From: a virus
Taxonomy: Duplodnaviria; Heunggongvirae; Uroviricota; Caudoviricetes
Strand: one strand, 5' to 3'
IMG/VR virus record: IMGVR_UViG_2703718873_000026
DNA: 36,140 bases
Shown: piece by piece, positions 14,497 to 25,996 of the stretch
How the letters are laid out: the number at the start of each line of letters is the position of its first letter
Position numbering within the stretch: the first letter of the stretch is position 1
Program-made: the position numbers and the translations under genes
The notes under the pieces: generated by a model
Database searches by the model: none
The model's input: only the letters and a program-made list of their open reading frames with translations
Told to the model about the DNA's origin: nothing

Positions 14497-14505
14497 CGAA
14501 AAATC

Positions 14506-14532
14506 AGCCTTAGCGTTCATAACGTTAGGGCT
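14506..14532. terminator. bidirectional hairpin terminator between convergent Q and retron RT
   Basis: 12-bp stem AGCCTTAGCGTT / AACGTTAGGGCT (two G-U pairs), 3-nt loop, A-run upstream (T-run on the minus strand) and T-rich tail downstream. Confidence 0.55.
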
Positions 14533-14537
14533 GTTCA

Positions 14538-16484
<1,947 letters not shown>

Positions 16485-16528
16485 TCAACTTTCTGTTTTC
16501 CAGAAGTATTTTGGCTATTTTCGGTGAT

Positions 16529-16558
16529 AGCGCGCGCTCGTATCCCCGCCACGCCTGC
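16529..16558. other. cos (cohesive end site) of P2/186 type
   Basis: Minus strand reads GGCGTGGCGGGGATACGAGCGCGCGCT. From memory P2 cos is GGCGAGGCGGGGAAAGCAC followed by TGCGCGCT and the 186 end starts GGCGTGGCGGGGA. Located beyond the 3' end of Q, as in P2/186. Confidence 0.5.
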
Positions 16559-16574
16559 CCGCTTTATGCAGTGG

Positions 16575-16685
16575 TTTTCATGCACATGCATGACATGAGC
16601 AAAAGCCCGCCAGTTCTGGCGGATCTGAGCAAAGACGATCCTCAATCGATCATGCGATTTCATGCAGCATAGTCATGCACTGTCA
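16575..16685. repeat. cluster of CATGC(A/G) repeats flanking cos (candidate cosB / terminase-binding elements)
   Basis: At least five copies within ~110 bp (..TTCATGCACATGCATGACATGAGC.. and ..ATCATGCGATTTCATGCAGCATAGTCATGCACTG..); the same hexamer lies in the retron a1/a2 repeats. Confidence 0.35.
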
Positions 16686-16934
16686 AGGAAGTGAAAATCC
16701 GTATCTGAATGGCCACTTGAAAAACGGATCATACGGGTTTACAAAGATGAATGTTCGCTGTGAACGGGAAGCGGAAGTTAACTTTCAGATAACATAATCC
16801 ATATGCGCGAGAACCTCTAAAATAGAATGGGACACCTAAGCGGGGTACTTACAACGATTCTTTCCATATTCACAGTTAACACTCTGTTTGGCGTATTTTT
16901 ATTCAAATAGCAAACACCAATAAAAGGAGTTTCC

Positions 16935-17270
16935 ATGAACAATATTCCCCCTATACCACAGTTAGGAATTTATGTCTCAAAAATCGATCCCACCCTACGT
17001 ATCACTGTAACCGATGTTGATATTGTTGATGGTGAGGATGATTCTCCTGATGATGAATTGTTTTATTTAGTCCACTGGATCGAGGGGGAAGATGAAAGTG
17101 ATATGACAGCAATGGGATTTGAGCTAGACCCAGTAGAGTGGCAGGCTTTCGTTGAATCTGAGCAATTAGTGTTTGAGCGTGATCCGTACATGGATTCAAT
17201 CCCCGAAAATTCAAACTTGGCAAAGATTCGGGATTTTCTCATGAAGACTAAACAGAATGATCATTCGTAA
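16935..17270 (+). CDS. hypothetical acidic protein (111 aa, rich in D/E)
   Basis: ATG with AAGGAG about 7 nt upstream; opposite strand to the Tum/A genes; between cos and the tum module. No family recognised. Confidence 0.55.
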   Translation: MNNIPPIPQLGIYVSKIDPTLRITVTDVDIVDGEDDSPDDELFYLVHWIEGEDESDMTAMGFELDPVEWQAFVESEQLVFERDPYMDSIPENSNLAKIRDFLMKTKQNDHS

Positions 17271-17424
17271 GTGTAAGCATCCATCAGGAAAATGGTTTTG
17301 TAAGTGAATCATCAACTTTTAGAGAGTCTCAGACACTCCCACTTCTGCTTCTGACACAAAGCGGACGATCACTTATCAAAATAACCGCCCACCTTACGCC
17401 TTATTTCACTCATTGCCCAAACTA

Positions 17425-17454
17425 GCCCCCATCAGAATGAATCCTCCTGGGGGC
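17425..17454. terminator. GC-rich hairpin between convergent genes (possible terminator)
   Basis: GCCCCCA ..16 nt.. TGGGGGC between the end of the 16935..17270 ORF and the end of the DinI-like gene; no clear T-tract. Confidence 0.3.
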
Positions 17455-17462
17455 AACATTTC

Positions 17463-17696
17463 TTAATGCAGCCAGCTGTCGTCCTCCCACACCTTCTGCA
17501 TAATTTTCATCACTTGTTTTCTTTCTTCATCCAGTTGCAGTCCGGTTAGTTCCACACCGTTAGAGCTACCTTTGCGAATGCGAATTACCGTTTTGGGATA
17601 CAGGGGGCGCAGATTGCGGTAAAGCTCGGATTCAAGTGCGTCCAAGGTAGACTGGCTAATCTTCTGCTCTTTATCGATCATTATTTCAATGCGCAT
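17463..17696 (-). CDS. DinI-like protein (Tum C-terminal-domain-like antirepressor candidate)
   Basis: From ATG 17694-17696 with GAGGTG upstream: MRIEIMIDKEQK..LDALESELYRNL..VIRIRKG..GL..DEERKQVMKIMQKVWEDDSW, same pattern as E. coli DinI. ORF track extends to 17768 in a frame overlapping the upstream ORF. Confidence 0.7.
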   Translation of the reverse strand: MRIEIMIDKEQKISQSTLDALESELYRNLRPLYPKTVIRIRKGSSNGVELTGLQLDEERKQVMKIMQKVWEDDSWLH

Positions 17697-17706
17697 AAAA
17701 GTCACC

Positions 17707-17895
17707 TCAGCTGATGACATCCATTGAGCGGTTGTATTCGTGGCTTCTGATTTTTGCCATGAGTTCATCAGTCAATTCAGAAACCCACTGCAGAGCCAGC
17801 CCCTTCTCTTCATCACTACACTCACTAGCCGCTACAAGCTTAAGAAAAAAATCAATGCGCTGGAGCTTCAAAGACTCCAAAAAATAGTCCTGCAT
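17707..17895 (-). CDS. small protein upstream of the DinI-like gene (possible N-terminal part of a split Tum-like antirepressor)
   Basis: 62-aa ORF starting ~45 bp downstream of a LexA box, ending just upstream of and in a different frame from the DinI-like ORF. Confidence 0.5.
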   Translation of the reverse strand: MQDYFLESLKLQRIDFFLKLVAASECSDEEKGLALQWVSELTDELMAKIRSHEYNRSMDVIS

Positions 17896-17935
17896 CTTTC
17901 CTCCTATGACACCAAAACAATACTGTATACATAAC

Positions 17936-18047: not shown

Positions 18048-20462
18048 TTAATACAGGTTCCGCCACTTATCATCTTCCTTCAGACGCTGGTTCCGATAGA
18101 AGATACGCAGGCCTGCTCCTGACGGAATACTGCCGCCGCGAAGGAGCAAATCGACTTCTTTCTCGCTGCCATCAAATCCCCTGGACTTCAGTTCATAGAC
18201 GAGCTGCTGTCGCTGATGGTCTGTAATTCGCTGTTTGTAGTCTTTACGCCGTTTCGGTTTCACCTGGCGTAACCTTGCAGCCAGTTCCCGGCGCTCTTTT
18301 TTGCTCATACTGTGCAGGTAATCGTGCAACTCCTTGTCATTCATACGGGTAATATCCGTTCTGGAGTCCCCATCAGCTGATTTGTCTTTCCCTTGTTGGT
18401 TCAAATTTTCAGCAAGGGGACAGTTATTGCCACGAGTCCAAGGGGCGCAAGCGCCCTGGTCGGCTACCGCCTCCTGAACGTCAACGGCCTTACGAACCAT
18501 TTTCCACTTCACTGCATGAGTGCAGATCTTGCCCTCTGCAATGGGTGACCAGATGCCATAAATACGAATGCCGTGATCGCCATAGGCGGTCGGCTCTTCG
18601 TTGATTTCATAAGCGGTTCTGATAAGGTGATATTTACGGGGAACCAGTACGCCGCCCTGCTTCATGATGTAGGTGGCAAAACAACCAGCATCAGCAGCAG
18701 CCAGGATGGCATCAAGGCGCGGGTCATCCAGTATCGGCGCACCTGCTTTTTTGTCACCCTGTTGCCTTGCCGCCTGACCAGCCAGCAAGCGAAGTTCACG
18801 GTAAGCCTGACGTCCCGGAATACCAAAGAAGCGGAACTGCTGAACACGATGCAGAGACGCCCAGGCATTAACGTATTCGGCGTTATCACGCAGGGATTTA
18901 CCCGTTTCCTTGCTGATCTCGCCAGCCAGACCACGCCCGTCAATGTTCTTACTGATGTATTTCGCGATGTAGCTTGTCGGTGTTCCTTTGCGCGGGTTAA
19001 TCAGCTCAGACTTAAAGCGTGGCCCCGTGTTGTTGCCCAGCTCCTCGCGGTCTACACGGATGGCAAACTTACGCAGTAATGCAGTGATGGCGCGGCGGTC
19101 TTTTTTACGCATGAAGCACATGAGATGCCAGTGCACAGTACCGTCATGGTGCGGCTCAGCCACCCGCACGCCATACCAGCGCAACCCGGTTTTGTGCATT
19201 GCCTTACGAAATGCAGCAAACATGCCGACCATATAATCGCTGCTTTGTCTTACCGTCGCATTTGTCCAGGTCGGGTTGGGTCTGCCGTTGTTGAGCGTGG
19301 AATGGAAACGTGACGGACAGGTGATAGTGTAGAAAACGGCGCAGTCACCGCGCATTTCCGCGATAAGCTCCAGACCTTTAACACAGGCCATCATCTCATT
19401 GCGGCGATGCGCAGGGTTGCTGCTGCTGGCGTTTACCACATCCTCCATGTCCAGCGTGTCGCCGTCTTCGTTCACCAGTTCATGAGAACGGAAAAACTCC
19501 AGCGACTTACGGCGCTGCTCACGTTTATGCATCACGGCTTCATAGCTGACATAGGGAGATGCTTTTTTGCTGACCAGGCAGACAGCACGCAACTGCTCTT
19601 CCCGCCATTCGCAACGCATCTTCCATAATTTCCGATACCACCAGTCGGCGCACAACATACGCGCCAGCGAACCCGGAATGAGTTCATAGGGCACGGGTTT
19701 ACGGCGGTTTCTTTTCCGACGGAGTTGCTCAAACGCAGGTGGGATGACATCCAGACGCAGGGTTTCCGCCGCCACCTTTTCCCATGTCTTGCGGATTTCT
19801 TCTGGCTTAACGTCATCGGTGGCATACAAATCGCCACAAGCTGCATCAAGGCACATGCTCATATGCGCAGCTACCAGGGTGGACAGGCGTTTCACCTGAT
19901 CCTGACTCATTTCAGGCAGAATCAGCAGGCCCTCCAGCCCTTGATGGCTTGCCATAAAACGGAAAGAAGCAGACAGCTGACTGTCACGTACACAATCCAG
20001 TCGCTCCAGACATGGCTTAATCGTCTCACGCAAATAGCGGGAATAAGCCTTTGGCCTGCCCAGGCTGCTGAAGTATTCGATACGTTGCATCAGCGGCTTG
20101 CTAATATGGGTGGGCTGGGCGCTGACGTCCGCCAGAATGACCATGTCCGGGTTAAAACGCTGCTGTTCATGCGCTAGCTTTGCCCGGCTAATGAGCTTAT
20201 CCTGCTCCATTTCGCGCTGGACAGGATCACGAGATTCATTAAAGAAATAACGCTCCCAGACCTGCTCACTCAGTGCATCGCGGCGCAGCTGTTCCTGCTC
20301 ATTATCGGCAGCGTACAGAGTGATCAGGTTTAAAAGTGCAGACTCCGGAGCAACTTCCGCCGGGTCCAGATAAGGGTTAATGGCCTTTTTCGGGCCGTTC
20401 CATGAAAATGCTGCAGCGGCCTCGTTAAAGCCGCTAGAGTTGCTCATATCGTCATGACTCAT
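18048..20462 (-). CDS. A: replication initiation protein (rolling-circle endonuclease), P2 gpA-like
   Basis: 804 aa; metal-binding ..[12 protein letters not shown].. and Tyr-containing region ..[10 protein letters not shown]..; start ATG overlaps the dam stop (ATGA). Confidence 0.85.
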
Positions 20463-22652: not shown

Positions 22653-23162
22653 TCACAGCAAACCGAATGAAGCACCGAGGCCAGTCACGGTATCAACTGC
22701 ACTCGCCATCGCAGGATTAGCCTGTAAACGGGCCTGCAATGAAACAGCAGCCAGCGCCATCAGTCGTGTTACAGAGTTAATGCTGCTGATAGCATCACGA
22801 CGACCGGCACTAGTTTTTACATCACCAGATACCGCACCTGCTGCAACACGTCCAATCTCTGCAGTTGCGCTCATGACGTAATGCGGCAGTTTCTCTTTTG
22901 CAACCTCATTAATCGGTACACATGGCAGGCAGTGAATCTGTGCCAGAAAACCATCTACCAGCGTTGAATCTTCTGTCAGATCGGTAAGCAGCCAGATTTC
23001 TGGTGCGGTTAATAAATGAGGTTGAGATGGGTTCAGCTTGTTCCGCAGAATCTGCACATTCATGCCAGCACGTTCTGCCAGTTGCACCAGATTGTGGCGC
23101 AGTGCGAATGCACGACAGGCTTCATCAAAATGTGGATGTTTGGAAACTTGGTAATCAAACAT
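22653..23162 (-). CDS. cII: CII-like lysogeny establishment activator (phage 186 CII homolog)
   Basis: From ATG 23160-23162: [60 protein letters not shown], 169 aa, colinear with 186 CII (also 169 aa). ORF track adds 3 codons from a TTG. Confidence 0.85.
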
Positions 23163-23226
23163 GGTTTTCAACTCCGAACTTATCGCAAAATCGAACTCAG
23201 CGTCTTATTGCGAAAATAGACATCTA

Positions 23227-23403
23227 TTAAGCAGACAAAGCATCAACAGTCAGAGCAGCCAGGTTAATCATTACCTTTTCACGTTTTTTGTCTTTACGAA
23301 GACGATGACGAGGTAGTCGGCCATCAGCCAACATGTCGTTAATCGTATCAATAGAAAGGCCAGTCAGTTCGCTATAACGTTGGTTTGGGAGAAGGTTCGG
23401 CAT
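23227..23403 (-). CDS. apl: Apl/Cox-like excisionase/repressor with a chimeric N-terminus created at crossover site B
   Basis: ..[40 protein letters not shown].. resembles P2 Cox. Current ATG (23401-23403) and first ~8 codons (MPNLLPNQ) are encoded by site B plus tail-fibre cassette DNA. ORF track extends to 23508. Confidence 0.6.
23368..23393. other. invertase crossover-like site B: TTCGCTATAACG-TT-GGTTTGGGAGAA
   Basis: Right half identical to the inner half of site C; core TT versus AA at site A; lies exactly at the apl / tail-fibre-cassette junction. Confidence 0.55.
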
Positions 23404-23888
23404 TACCCGTTGGTGTGCCTGTTCCGTGGCCTTCCGCCACTCCGCCAACAGGCTGGCTGAAATGCAACGGTGCGGCTTTTTCTGCTGAAGAATACCCGGA
23501 ACTGGCAAAGGCTTACCCGACCAATAAATTGCCTGATTTACGCGGTGAATTTATTCGTGGCTGGGATGACGGTCGCGGGATTGATACTGGTCGCGCTTTG
23601 CTTAATTGGCAGCCACACACAATTTTGGACCATGCACACTATATGGAATTATGGACAGGGGACGGACTCGCCGCAGGAAGTGCACGGGAAGGAGTAAACC
23701 CAGGAATACTGGCTACATACGGTGACGGGGGAATAGTTAAAACGGATGAACCCGGTCTTAAGGTGCCTTCCTCACTACGAGCTATTAGCTCTCGTAGTGT
23801 TAAACGTTATGGTGAAATTAGTGAAAATGTAGGTACAGAAACTCGTCCTCGTAACATCGCTTTTAATTATATTGTGAGGGCCGCATGA
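23382..23888 (+). CDS. tail fibre variable C-terminal cassette 1 (receptor-binding segment), no own start
   Basis: Begins at the conserved half-site GGT TTG GGA GAA (G L G E) and encodes ..[62 protein letters not shown].., typical of Mu S / P2 H C-terminal domains. Confidence 0.75.
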   Translation, partial: GLGEGSALPVGVPVPWPSATPPTGWLKCNGAAFSAEEYPELAKAYPTNKLPDLRGEFIRGWDDGRGIDTGRALLNWQPHTILDHAHYMELWTGDGLAAGSAREGVNPGILATYGDGGIVKTDEPGLKVPSSLRAISSRSVKRYGEISENVGTETRPRNIAFNYIVRAA

Positions 23889-24490
23889 TGAATAAAGCTG
23901 TATTAAATAGCGAACTCATTGCCATAAAAGCGGGAGATATTACCGTTTATAATTATGATGGTGAAACGCGGGAATATATTTCTACATCAACTGAATATCT
24001 CGCTGTCGGCGTCGGTATCCCGGCATGTTCCTGTCTGGATGCACCAGGTACACATAAAGCTGGTTATGCAATCTGTCGCTCTGTAGATTTAAATTCATGG
24101 GAATATGTGCCAGACCATCGCGGTGAAGTTGTCTATAGTACCGAAACGGGAGATACCAAAGAAATCACAGTTCCGGGTGATTACCCTGAAAATACAACCA
24201 CTATCGCCCCATTAACGCCATACGATGAATGGGATGGTGAGAAATGGGTGACAGATACCGAGGCACAGCATAGCGCCGCAGTAGGCGCGGCAGAAGCACA
24301 GCGCCAGTCGCTGATTGATGCTGCTATGGCTTCCATCAGTCTGATTCAGCTGAAATTGCAGGCCGGGCGGCAGCTGACGCAAGCAGAAATCACCCGCCTT
24401 AACGCTGTGCTGGATTACATTGACACGGTGACGGCAACAGATACCAGCACCGCGCCGGATGTCATCTGGCCTGAACTGCCGGAGGCGTAG
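23885..24490 (+). CDS. tail fibre assembly protein (Tfa / P2 gpG-like)
   Basis: 201 aa; C-terminal ..LQAGRQLTQAEITRLNAVLDYIDTVTATDTSTAPDVIWPELP.. typical of Tfa chaperones. Confidence 0.8.
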   Translation: MMNKAVLNSELIAIKAGDITVYNYDGETREYISTSTEYLAVGVGIPACSCLDAPGTHKAGYAICRSVDLNSWEYVPDHRGEVVYSTETGDTKEITVPGDYPENTTTIAPLTPYDEWDGEKWVTDTEAQHSAAVGAAEAQRQSLIDAAMASISLIQLKLQAGRQLTQAEITRLNAVLDYIDTVTATDTSTAPDVIWPELPEA

Positions 24491-24905
24491 GCCATTCAAT
24501 ATCTGGAGCACTGGAGGTATCAACCAGTTCCAGTGCGTCCAGATAATCCAGCCACAAATTATATTGCGCCAGTTCCTCACTTTTCAGACGACCAATCGCC
24601 GCTTTGCCAGGCCACTGATGGGTATTGATGTAGGTATTGACTTCAGAAACCAAAGATATTTTTTTCATTTCAGCCGTCAACACCTCATCCTCTTTTGAAG
24701 GGGGTGGGGAATTAATCCATACTGGCCGTCCTGAACTGTCAGCGCCAATTTCTTTCCCTTCTGGATGCAGCCCAAGAAATTGCTCATATGTTTCTCTGGT
24801 AATTTCAATAACATCATCAGGAAGCGTTCCCGCATCCTCATATTCTGGAAACAATTCTTGCAGATAAAAACTTTTACTTCCGGGTGAAAAGAATACTGAG
24901 TTCAT
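24462..24905 (-). CDS. tail fibre assembly protein (second, opposite-orientation copy)
   Basis: 147 aa; C-terminal ..LAQYNLWLDYLDALELVDTSSAPDIEWP.. ; convergent with the first Tfa. Confidence 0.8.
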   Translation of the reverse strand: MNSVFFSPGSKSFYLQELFPEYEDAGTLPDDVIEITRETYEQFLGLHPEGKEIGADSSGRPVWINSPPPSKEDEVLTAEMKKISLVSEVNTYINTHQWPGKAAIGRLKSEELAQYNLWLDYLDALELVDTSSAPDIEWPTPPAVQAR

Positions 24906-24907
24906 TA

Positions 24908-25360
24908 TTACCGTCCAATGATTAATGCTGAGACGCTGGTATCTGAAGGAAAGGCTGCATTCAGTGGTTTGTCGACTTTGAACACAATCGTATTATTCCC
25001 CCTGACAGCGGCAAAAGAACAAACCGCAGTCGCGTATGAACCTGTAATATTACTGGATACACCACCATAAGCTGTTGTTGATACCAGAGGGATAACGCCC
25101 AGCACCTTATTAGGAAATACAAAGGGCAATGTGGCTGTGGCAATATAAGACTTATTAGAACCTGTAATGGCATAAGCATTATCAGTCATTCCATTCATCG
25201 CCACCGGGCCGCTTATACTTACAGTAACCATCTGAATGATTAGCCCGTCAGGTTGACGAATCACAAAATTTCCATTGCCACCAGTAACCGTCCAGAAAGA
25301 CATATCAGGGATTTGGTTTTCCCCGTTGCCCACATTCCGTTTTGCCGCTTCTCCCAAACC
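24908..25360 (-). CDS. tail fibre variable C-terminal cassette 2 (alternative receptor-binding segment)
   Basis: On the minus strand begins ..FINVGLGEAAKRNVGNGENQ.. at site C, in frame with the same G-L-G-E half-site codons. ORF track 24908..25402. Confidence 0.7.
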   Translation of the reverse strand, partial: GLGEAAKRNVGNGENQIPDMSFWTVTGGNGNFVIRQPDGLIIQMVTVSISGPVAMNGMTDNAYAITGSNKSYIATATLPFVFPNKVLGVIPLVSTTAYGGVSSNITGSYATAVCSFAAVRGNNTIVFKVDKPLNAAFPSDTSVSALIIGR

Positions 25361-25374
25361 AACGTTTATGAAAA
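25349..25374. other. invertase crossover-like site C: TTCTCCCAAACC-AA-CGTTTATGAAAA
   Basis: Inverted copy of site B (shared half GGTTTGGGAGAA, complementary core); about 55 bp upstream of the invertase gene. Confidence 0.55.
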
Positions 25375-25429
25375 TGCAGAGATAATGGCTAACTGGCATC
25401 ATCCACGGTTTTTATTCAGGGGATTGATC

Positions 25430-25996
25430 ATGCTTATTGGCTATGTACGCGTGTCAACAAATGACCAGAACACCGATTTGCAACGTAATGCACTGAACTG
25501 CGCGGGATGTGAGCGGATTTTTGAGGATAAAATCAGTGGCACTAAGTCCGACAGACCGGGGCTTAAAAAACTGCTCAGGACACTATCGGCAGGAGACACT
25601 CTGGTTGTCTGGAAGCTGGACAGGTTGGGGCGCAGTATGCGGCATCTTGTTACGCTGATAGAAGAGTTGCGTCAGCGTGGCGTGAATTTCCGAAGCCTGA
25701 CTGACAGTATTGATACCAGCACCCCAATGGGCCGTTTCTTTTTTCATGTCATGGGGGCCCTGGCTGAAATGGAACGCGAACTGATAGTTGAACGTACCAT
25801 GGCAGGGCTGGCTGCAGCTCGTGCCAAAGGCAGAGTAGGTGGACGCCGTCCTAAGTTGACCACCGAACAGTGGGCACAGATTGGGCGTTTACTCGAGGCC
25901 GGAGAATCAAGACAGCGTATTGCACTGATTTTTGATGTAGGCGTTTCTACCATTTATAGAAAATTTCCGGCAAATAAGAGCAATGAATCCCCCTGA
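25430..25996 (+). CDS. pin: serine recombinase, DNA invertase of the Hin/Gin/Pin/Cin family
   Basis: From internal ATG: MLIGYVRVSTNDQNTDLQRNAL..GDTLVVWKLDRLGRSM..FRSLTDSIDTSTPMGRFFFHVMGALAEMERELI.ERT.AGLAAAR.KGR.GGR.PKLT.., near-colinear with E. coli e14 Pin. ORF track extends 59 codons upstream. Confidence 0.9.
   Translation: MLIGYVRVSTNDQNTDLQRNALNCAGCERIFEDKISGTKSDRPGLKKLLRTLSAGDTLVVWKLDRLGRSMRHLVTLIEELRQRGVNFRSLTDSIDTSTPMGRFFFHVMGALAEMERELIVERTMAGLAAARAKGRVGGRRPKLTTEQWAQIGRLLEAGESRQRIALIFDVGVSTIYRKFPANKSNESP

Follow-up and report, generated by a model that had tools for sequence, protein, structure and literature searches.

What is a small, intact and strongly acidic gene doing beside the cohesive-end site (cos) of a 186-like prophage, on the strand opposite to that of its neighbours? 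The question is raised by a 36,140-nt stretch of Caudoviricetes DNA (IMG/VR record IMGVR_UViG_2703718873_000026; the whole stretch is referred to below as the window), in which an open reading frame (ORF) with an ATG start at 16935–17270 (+ strand; TAA stop at 17268–17270) encodes a protein of 111 amino acids (aa). The original prediction had described a highly acidic ORF near cos, opposite in strand to its neighbours and preceded by a good Shine–Dalgarno sequence, and the coordinates, the composition, the position of the cos block and the orientation of the flanking genes, all of which lie on the minus strand, agree with that description. The Shine–Dalgarno sequence AAGGAG was located at 16924–16929 (+), leaving a spacer of 5 nt to the ATG, and is kept in all aligned homologous loci. 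The product holds 15 aspartate and 11 glutamate residues (26 in all) as against four lysines and three arginines (seven), with an isoelectric point (pI) of 4.05, and the G+C content of the ORF is 40.5% compared with 51.2% for the window. Two antisense ORFs, at 17002–17223 and 17063–17242, were found to be unsupported.

This ORF represents a real gene that purifying selection maintains as an autonomous unit, as evidenced by the occurrence of the protein, identical or nearly so, on at least 1000 contigs, by 61 clusters of homologues and by low ratios of nonsynonymous to synonymous substitution (dN/dS). Its exact sequence is WP_001059831.1, named 'Ybl33' in UniRef and 'DUF8087 domain-containing protein' by PGAP. 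In the PHROGs collection it matches the function-unknown family phrog_17127 over residues 1–111 of 111 (E = 2e-70), and the 61 homologue clusters retrieved by a large protein search, from Escherichia coli, Raoultella, Providencia, Morganella, Citrobacter, Edwardsiella, Enterobacter, Serratia, Pectobacterium, Xenorhabdus and Klebsiella, all carry PF26332 (DUF8087). The earlier statement that the product belonged to no recognisable family had to be given up; both matching families are uncharacterised. The identical protein is encoded by E. coli B/BL21 and E2348/69, and of 5426 complete E. coli genomes 131 contain the whole 900-bp segment. When 1.84 billion representative proteins were searched with a profile, only 34 relatives of 70–127 aa came up, which have the first ∼80 residues in common, and a second, word-indexed search added members from Nitrosospira and metagenomes; a locus search based on an alignment of close homologues matched only five of 185,579 species-representative genomes. 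As tblastn against 50,697 GenBank phage records gave no DUF8087 match, the known copies of the gene all come from prophages and islands. Scans of the protein with NCBIfam and with a Pfam copy lacking the PF26332 model gave no matches, no PADLOC-DB v2 defence family was hit at E ≤ 1, and Pfam, NCBIfam and PADLOC revealed no signature of catalysis, of a transmembrane segment or of a defence system. Searches of the literature for DUF8087, WP_001059831 and Ybl33 returned nothing relevant. The protein is already catalogued as DUF8087, phrog_17127 and Ybl33; what the analysis adds is where the gene came from in evolution, that it is independent of the cargo on the Q side of cos and that charge is conserved throughout its family.

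The origin of the gene was traced through comparison loci (prophages, islands and viral contigs carrying DUF8087 relatives or matching slots, numbered with the prefix L). In P2-like prophages the intact order is a C repressor gene (HTH_3), an Flk_N-like gene, the DUF8087 gene and the integrase gene (int), which places the C gene two genes upstream of DUF8087 in the native operon. This order was observed in Klebsiella, Enterobacter, Buttiauxella and five IMG/VR contigs (L004–L009, L016–L017, L033 and L067–L071); in Klebsiella and Enterobacter the start of int overlaps the stop of the DUF8087 gene, and the two are ∼620 bp apart in Buttiauxella (L033) and L068. The Flk_N-like protein (phrog_5825, PF27202) is ∼213 aa long with a C-terminal membrane anchor and is a conserved partner upstream of DUF8087, between C and int (L004, 7343–7990; L016, 7341–7976; L033; L067–L071). 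It is weakly similar to the ORF6C-like region of Ant anti-repressors, and the homologous region of Escherichia phage 520873 (L074) is split into three unannotated pieces.

In the window, fragments of both of these neighbours flank the DUF8087 gene. Locus alignment revealed a remnant of the 3′ end of the Flk_N-like gene at 16821–16910 (+), an open frame running to ...TLFGVFLFK-TAG that corresponds to the membrane-anchor tail of the intact Enterobacter protein (...LLGAVLFK-TAG), and the spacer and Shine–Dalgarno sequence downstream of it align as well. An equivalent remnant was detected in Serratia (L010) by tblastn with the Flk_N-like C-terminus (E = 1e-4). On the other flank, a P2-type integrase gene is represented by a stub of 16 codons (MIIRKCKHPSGKWFCK-stop, 17257–17307, +), which overlaps the last DUF8087 codons exactly as intact int does. 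Together with the DUF8087 gene the two fragments constitute an inserted cassette of ∼570 bp (16772–17342) in the slot between cos and the DinI-like gene, with the backbone resuming on both sides: matches to the backbone only stop at ∼16770–16783 and restart at 17343, and the homology of the cassette to other genera extends from 16772 to 17306. The Flk_N-like and int remnants on its flanks and the order of the intact operon mark the cassette as a broken-off piece of the repressor–integrase operon of another P2-like phage that was transplanted into the cos–DinI slot of a 186-like prophage.

Cassettes with an int stub of 28–62 codons were found in E. coli ST648, Morganella, Serratia, Symbiopectobacterium, Lonsdalea and Proteus. 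At L003, L012, L029–L032 and L059–L061 the stub measures 52–62 codons (tblastn E = 2e-8 to 8e-18 for L003, L012 and L029–L032). The cassettes of the genera just named have 86–96% nucleotide identity over 0.6–1.2 kb and lie within otherwise unrelated islands; related cassettes have spread to unrelated islands and phages across the Enterobacterales. In the P2-like viral contigs L059–L061 a longer form of the cassette, with an extra gene for a 127-aa protein, sits exactly in the cos–DinI slot, and since it occupies the same slot it is a plausible intermediate. The 127-aa protein has no family and an N-terminal hydrophobic segment (L003, 6659–7042; also L031, L032, L059–L061 and L065); it is 92–98% identical across genera, accompanies the longer cassette of DUF8087 and int stub, and is absent from the window.

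Selection was assessed by the method of Nei and Gojobori, which gave dN/dS of 0.07–0.24 in essentially every one of 55 pairs from eleven loci in ten genera. The E. coli P2-type copies are at least 99% identical and hence carry little information on selection within the present context. Among pairs of solo loci from seven genera, at dS of 0.05–0.41, the frame was kept and dN/dS was 0.07–0.42, falling within 0.07–0.23 in all but one pair, and the gene is kept under purifying selection without the Flk_N-like gene or int.

The interval between gpA and gpQ, in which the cassette lies, is the P2 hotspot described by Rousset et al. (2022; PMC9122126), and in Table S5A of that study WP_001059831 has at least 50 entries as 'hypothetical'. 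In the window this interval is divided by a cos block (16527–16681) that is conserved in P2/186-like phages and in ∼1300 E. coli genomes and that contains the 186-type cohesive-end motif GGCGTGGCGGGGA (16543–16555, −). On the Q side of the block lies a gene for a retron Ec67-type reverse transcriptase (RT)–Toprim protein (14538–16298, −; Pfam RVT_1, E = 2.5e-31; PADLOC RT-Toprim_I-C, E = 4e-217; 'retron Ec67 family' in PGAP). Some 380 nt separate the cos motif from the DUF8087 ORF on the other side, and the RT start, beyond cos, is ∼640 nt away; the ORF is followed by a convergent backbone gene, the DinI-like gene of the 186 Tum type (17463–17696, −; Pfam DinI, E = 1.2e-22; PGAP). Across cos from the identical DUF8087 protein, whose gene has the same DinI and gpA neighbours each time, five different cargoes were found: retron Ec67, retron Ec86 with its effector (BL21), DprA (E2348/69), a TIGR02391 protein and a GTP pyrophosphokinase of the RelA/SpoT type. 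Conversely, in sibling prophages the cos–DinI slot is filled by a KAP P-loop nucleoside triphosphatase (NTPase) or by a pair of SIR2 and ATPase genes. As the Q-side cargo varies opposite an identical protein and other cargo fills the cos–DinI slot, the cos hotspot (window, L024–L026, L034 and L035) consists of two independent cargo slots, one per side, which vary separately: a Q-side slot (14497–16526) for retrons, DprA, TIGR02391 and RelA/SpoT-type genes, and a tum/DinI-side slot (16682–17462) for DUF8087, the KAP NTPase and SIR2 plus ATPase. The DUF8087 gene is cargo of the A/tum side, and its designation as an accessory gene of the cos-proximal variable region is borne out by the slot that it shares with the KAP NTPase and SIR2 plus ATPase genes inside the gpA–gpQ hotspot.

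Two further observations were made around cos. A 13-nt inverted repeat upstream of the RT gene (16336–16348 and 16454–16466, 92% complementary) fits the a1/a2 repeat of the Ec67 msr-msd; it ends ∼75 nt from the cohesive-end motif and lies wholly on the Q side of cos, and an Rfam scan of 16000–17900 gave zero matches, there as elsewhere in that interval. The 64-aa 'hypothetical protein' (WP_071529030) that PGAP draws over 16469–16663 and cos is probably spurious.

At least six kinds of context were recognized for the DUF8087 family: the two P2 slots, a CP4-57-like island, an island with a trio of recombinases that holds conflict-system genes, a lambda-type int fragment followed by a gene for a 373-aa protease-like protein, an inovirus neighbourhood (Zot/pIV), and elements with a Phage_GPA replication gene (GPA-Rep elements). 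The last class (L019, L020, L022, L027 and L028), found in Nitrosospira and metagenomes, comprises small integrative elements whose backbone is formed by genes for a P4-type integrase, an AlpA-like HTH_17 protein and Phage_GPA, and which may be P2-family satellites or defence islands. Their cargo includes Hachiman, OLD-TOPRIM with UvrD, a BglII-type restriction-modification system, SRA-HNH, TIR-STAND and AAA_16-TPR (TPR-STAND) proteins. Their DUF8087 members are 29–41% identical, and many of these distant members have a basic N-terminal extension (MGxAKxRG...RIAQA). With so many unrelated contexts, DUF8087 travels promiscuously, as a single gene, on many kinds of mobile element.

For the fold of the protein, two AlphaFold2 runs (29 and 49 sequences) converged on one topology with mean pLDDT confidence values of 76.6 and 80.6. 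Strands are predicted at residues 11–15, 22–31, 43–50, 61–64 and 78–82 and helices at 66–76, 84–87 and 94–108, and the uncertain parts of the model are an acidic loop at 31–40 (pLDDT 59) and the extreme C-terminus. The prediction is confident and shows a five-stranded barrel with additional helices that weakly resembles SH3 folds. DUF1653 (PDB 3BE3), FeoA, the CarD N-domain and domain I of elongation factor P (EF-P) resemble it at weak scores and 7–13% identity and have unrelated functions; this likeness to DUF1653 and to small SH3/Tudor-like barrels in the model is one of fold class only and not homology. No match at E ≤ 10 was obtained with two profiles in sequence searches of the PDB, and a fold search of the BFVD predicted viral structures gave nothing significant. 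The acidic character runs through the whole family: all 107 members of at least 65 aa have a pI of 4.99 or lower and an aspartate plus glutamate content of 17–30%, and the 60-residue core without the variable loop has a net charge of −5 to −12 in every member (−11 in the window protein). Acidic columns are conserved at D27, D56, E63, D65 and E68; no variation is seen at P8, G11 and W69, and 30 of 31 sequences have Y13. The poly-acidic loop, in contrast, varies in length from four to 15 residues. Since the charge of the core is kept family-wide while the loop varies, the negative charge is a selected property of the fold, and the aspartate/glutamate run is no conserved element. A resemblance to the C-terminal tail of single-stranded DNA-binding protein ('DDELFY' versus 'DDDIPF') was considered and rejected, because the motif is internal and forms a β-strand in the model.

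A small soluble protein of this kind, with conserved negative charge, carried by many mobile elements and free of catalytic, membrane or defence signatures, would likely act by blocking a basic protein. By analogy with known acidic inhibitors we tentatively favour, as quite possible though by no means assured, an acidic protein of the anti-defence type that works autonomously and inhibits a basic protein which binds DNA. On its own, the DUF8087 protein would bind or inhibit, in stoichiometric fashion, a protein of positive charge that most likely binds nucleic acids; the conserved negative face of the small SH3-like barrel (D27, D56, E63, D65 and E68 together with the acidic loops) would serve as the binding surface, in the manner of CarS, TifA or the classical DNA mimics; and the most probable benefit would be anti-defence or anti-restriction for whichever mobile element carries the gene.

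One precedent is CarS, an antirepressor of Myxococcus xanthus (PDB 2KSS), a small, acidic, SH3-like protein whose acid-lined pocket mimics operator DNA to the recognition helix of a repressor (PMC2926617); both proteins are small and highly acidic, and the five-stranded antiparallel SH3-like fold of CarS is weakly resembled by the predicted model of DUF8087. TifA (Orf65 of phage phi47), of whose residues ∼21% are acidic, has an N-terminal SH3-like domain and an electronegative surface; it inhibits type IV restriction enzymes by direct binding and is no strict mimic of B-DNA (PMC11322646). It resembles DUF8087 as a small acidic phage accessory protein, and in two related distant elements the gene for an SRA-HNH type IV nuclease adjoins DUF8087; it differs in its origin from a phage of Gram-positive bacteria and in that the BFVD fold search gave no significant match, and in the distant elements the SRA-HNH gene is resident on the same element as DUF8087 and is not that of an enemy. 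Ocr (T7 gp0.3) and ArdA share strong net negative charge, small size and carriage by mobile elements with DUF8087, whereas the predicted β-barrel with helices contrasts with the all-helical Ocr and the elongated fold of ArdA, and the native place of DUF8087 is a lysogeny operon, not an early or leading region; the Ocr and ArdA Pfam families gave no match to the protein, and no sequence or fold homology to either was found. The other cargo of the P2 gpA–gpQ hotspot (old, tin, retrons and DprA-PRTase; PMC9122126) shares the locus with DUF8087; it differs in that Rousset et al. neither grouped nor assayed the DUF8087 protein as a defence system, and in that DUF8087 lies on the A/tum side of cos and is independent of the Q-side system.

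Against a DNA mimic stands the outcome of the remote-homology and structure-prediction check that the original prediction had proposed for it: in searches by sequence, of the PDB, of BFVD and with the AlphaFold2 model, the predicted fold matched no known DNA mimic, be it Ocr, ArdA or any other solved one. With CarS and TifA as precedents, however, acidic inhibition is possible without Ocr-like shape mimicry, and the idea of a DNA-mimic or anti-defence factor is a reasonable and plausible one with which the family-wide negative charge is consistent. A broader proposal, which we regard as rather doubtful in its full extent, is that DUF8087 might be a widely mobile, hitherto unrecognised family of SH3-like acidic inhibitors providing anti-defence without mimicry of B-DNA shape, extending from enterobacterial P2-like phages, where it would be co-expressed with the repressor and integrase, to β-proteobacterial and metagenomic GPA-Rep elements; in a variant of this, the protein would neutralise adjacent SRA-HNH-type nucleases. 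A type II antitoxin was rejected, because the DUF8087 gene in the window has no co-oriented neighbour gene but only dead remnants, and its Flk_N-like partner has no known toxin domain.

Among the alternatives to an autonomous inhibitor, a role within a prophage superinfection-exclusion or defence module survives best, unlikely as we consider it. Here DUF8087 would work with the tail-anchored Flk_N-like protein, for example as a cytosolic sensor, regulator or antidote, and a solo copy would be an orphan antidote or a decoy that blocks a protein of an incoming phage. In intact P2-like prophages the gene always directly follows the Flk_N-like gene between C and int, where prophage exclusion genes are typically found; in siblings the slot that it now occupies carries the KAP NTPase or SIR2 plus ATPase genes, and this slot belongs to a published P2 defence hotspot; and its neighbours elsewhere include Hachiman, OLD-TOPRIM with UvrD, SRA-HNH and TIR-STAND. 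Yet purifying selection persists without the Flk_N-like gene in many genera, distant members never have an Flk_N-like neighbour, PADLOC gives no match, and a soluble protein of 70–111 aa without an enzymatic or membrane domain would be atypical as a stand-alone effector.

Still less probable, in our estimate, is a regulator of the life cycle of GPA-Rep and P2-type elements, either an antirepressor that masks the recognition helix of a repressor, in the way of CarS or P4 epsilon, or a modulator of integrase or Rep. This would agree with the position of the gene, which in the P2-like operons and each of the five distant elements examined is no more than one gene away from a tyrosine integrase, with its divergent orientation from the AlpA–GPA operon in L019 and L027, and with the precedent of the acidic SH3-like antirepressor CarS. 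The orientation relative to int, however, is variable (upstream, downstream or convergent), the gene persists beside a dead int stub and in other types of element, and it is hard to see why an antirepressor would share a transcript with its own repressor. Recombination directionality factors usually bind DNA and are basic; such a factor was rejected for the acidic DUF8087 protein, whose gene moreover varies in orientation to int.

We consider it improbable that the gene in the window is a hitch-hiking relic, one that is intact because the cassette is young but that was severed from the operon promoter and is silent and functionless here. Dead fragments of its former neighbours on both flanks, the near-identity of the E. 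coli P2-type copies and the failure of a standard promoter scan to find a consensus plus-strand promoter for the gene would all suit such a relic. Against it, the solo cassettes of seven genera keep the frame at the synonymous divergence given above while their int stub decayed or shrank further, and a promoter-like TTCACA-N19-TATTTT together with the Shine–Dalgarno sequence is conserved in all solo copies. This candidate σ70 promoter, weak and with a 19-nt spacer, was picked out by our own scan of the locus alignment at 16869–16899 (+), inside the Flk_N-like remnant, and is present in seven of seven solo cassettes, whose sequences are closely related, and in none of the operon-type loci.

Finally, the idea that the gene serves the adjacent retron Ec67 as partner, regulator or antidote, the first of which the original prediction had offered as partner of the adjacent defence locus, is effectively refuted, as it has only physical proximity across cos in its favour and is contradicted by the identical protein opposite Ec86, DprA, TIGR02391, GTP pyrophosphokinase and many other cargoes, by the presence of Ec67 in only 12 of the ∼131 E. 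coli genomes that carry the ORF, by at least 15 different spacings between the portal gene (Q) and cos among 27 P2-type viral contigs, by cos itself, which parts retron and DUF8087 gene in packaged DNA, and by the single-gene nature of type I-C RT-Toprim retrons, PADLOC calling the window RT an RT-Toprim I-C 'single gene' and retron Eco2/Ec67 being experimentally a single-protein system (PMC12916289). A retron accessory or effector was likewise rejected, the gene lying on the opposite strand, across cos, and its identical protein occurring with at least five unrelated cargoes.

Some features of the surrounding prophage complete the description of the locus. Upstream of the DUF8087 gene a LexA box was looked for and discarded, the only palindrome, ACAG-N8-CTGT, having the wrong orientation. 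Beyond the DinI-like gene, a conserved acidic hypothetical protein of 62 aa (WP_001154431/WP_001154434) is encoded at 17707–17895 (−), ahead of the GPA replication gene gpA (18048–20462, −; PGAP), and since it is found in all sibling prophages it belongs to the backbone and is not cargo. The prophage lies in E. coli FHI_NMBU_11 between rcdA and ybjL and apparently carries an inversion of ∼21 kb (window 1–3262 and 22653–25996). The int (1–1053) and cI (1449–2018) genes abut a C-terminally truncated tail-fibre gene (2207–3262, a pseudogene in PGAP), and the missing C-terminal piece (23415–23888), two tail-fibre assembly genes and a Hin/Gin-type recombinase gene (25430–25996) abut cII (22653–23162). 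The inversion looks like an aberrant invertase-mediated event between the H gene and the cI/apl switch, and would inactivate the phage.

Should the gene prove silent or trivial, it would be merely one more hypothetical moron. Whatever its function, cargo at the P2 cos hotspot occupies two independent slots, one on either side of cos, a piece torn from the repressor–integrase operon of another P2-like phage can become such cargo, and the neighbouring retron needs no partner. If the protein is indeed an acidic inhibitor, DUF8087 would add a new fold family to the few acidic protein inhibitors on mobile elements, the workhorse strain BL21 would constitutively carry one, and this natural copy would make the inhibitor immediately testable.
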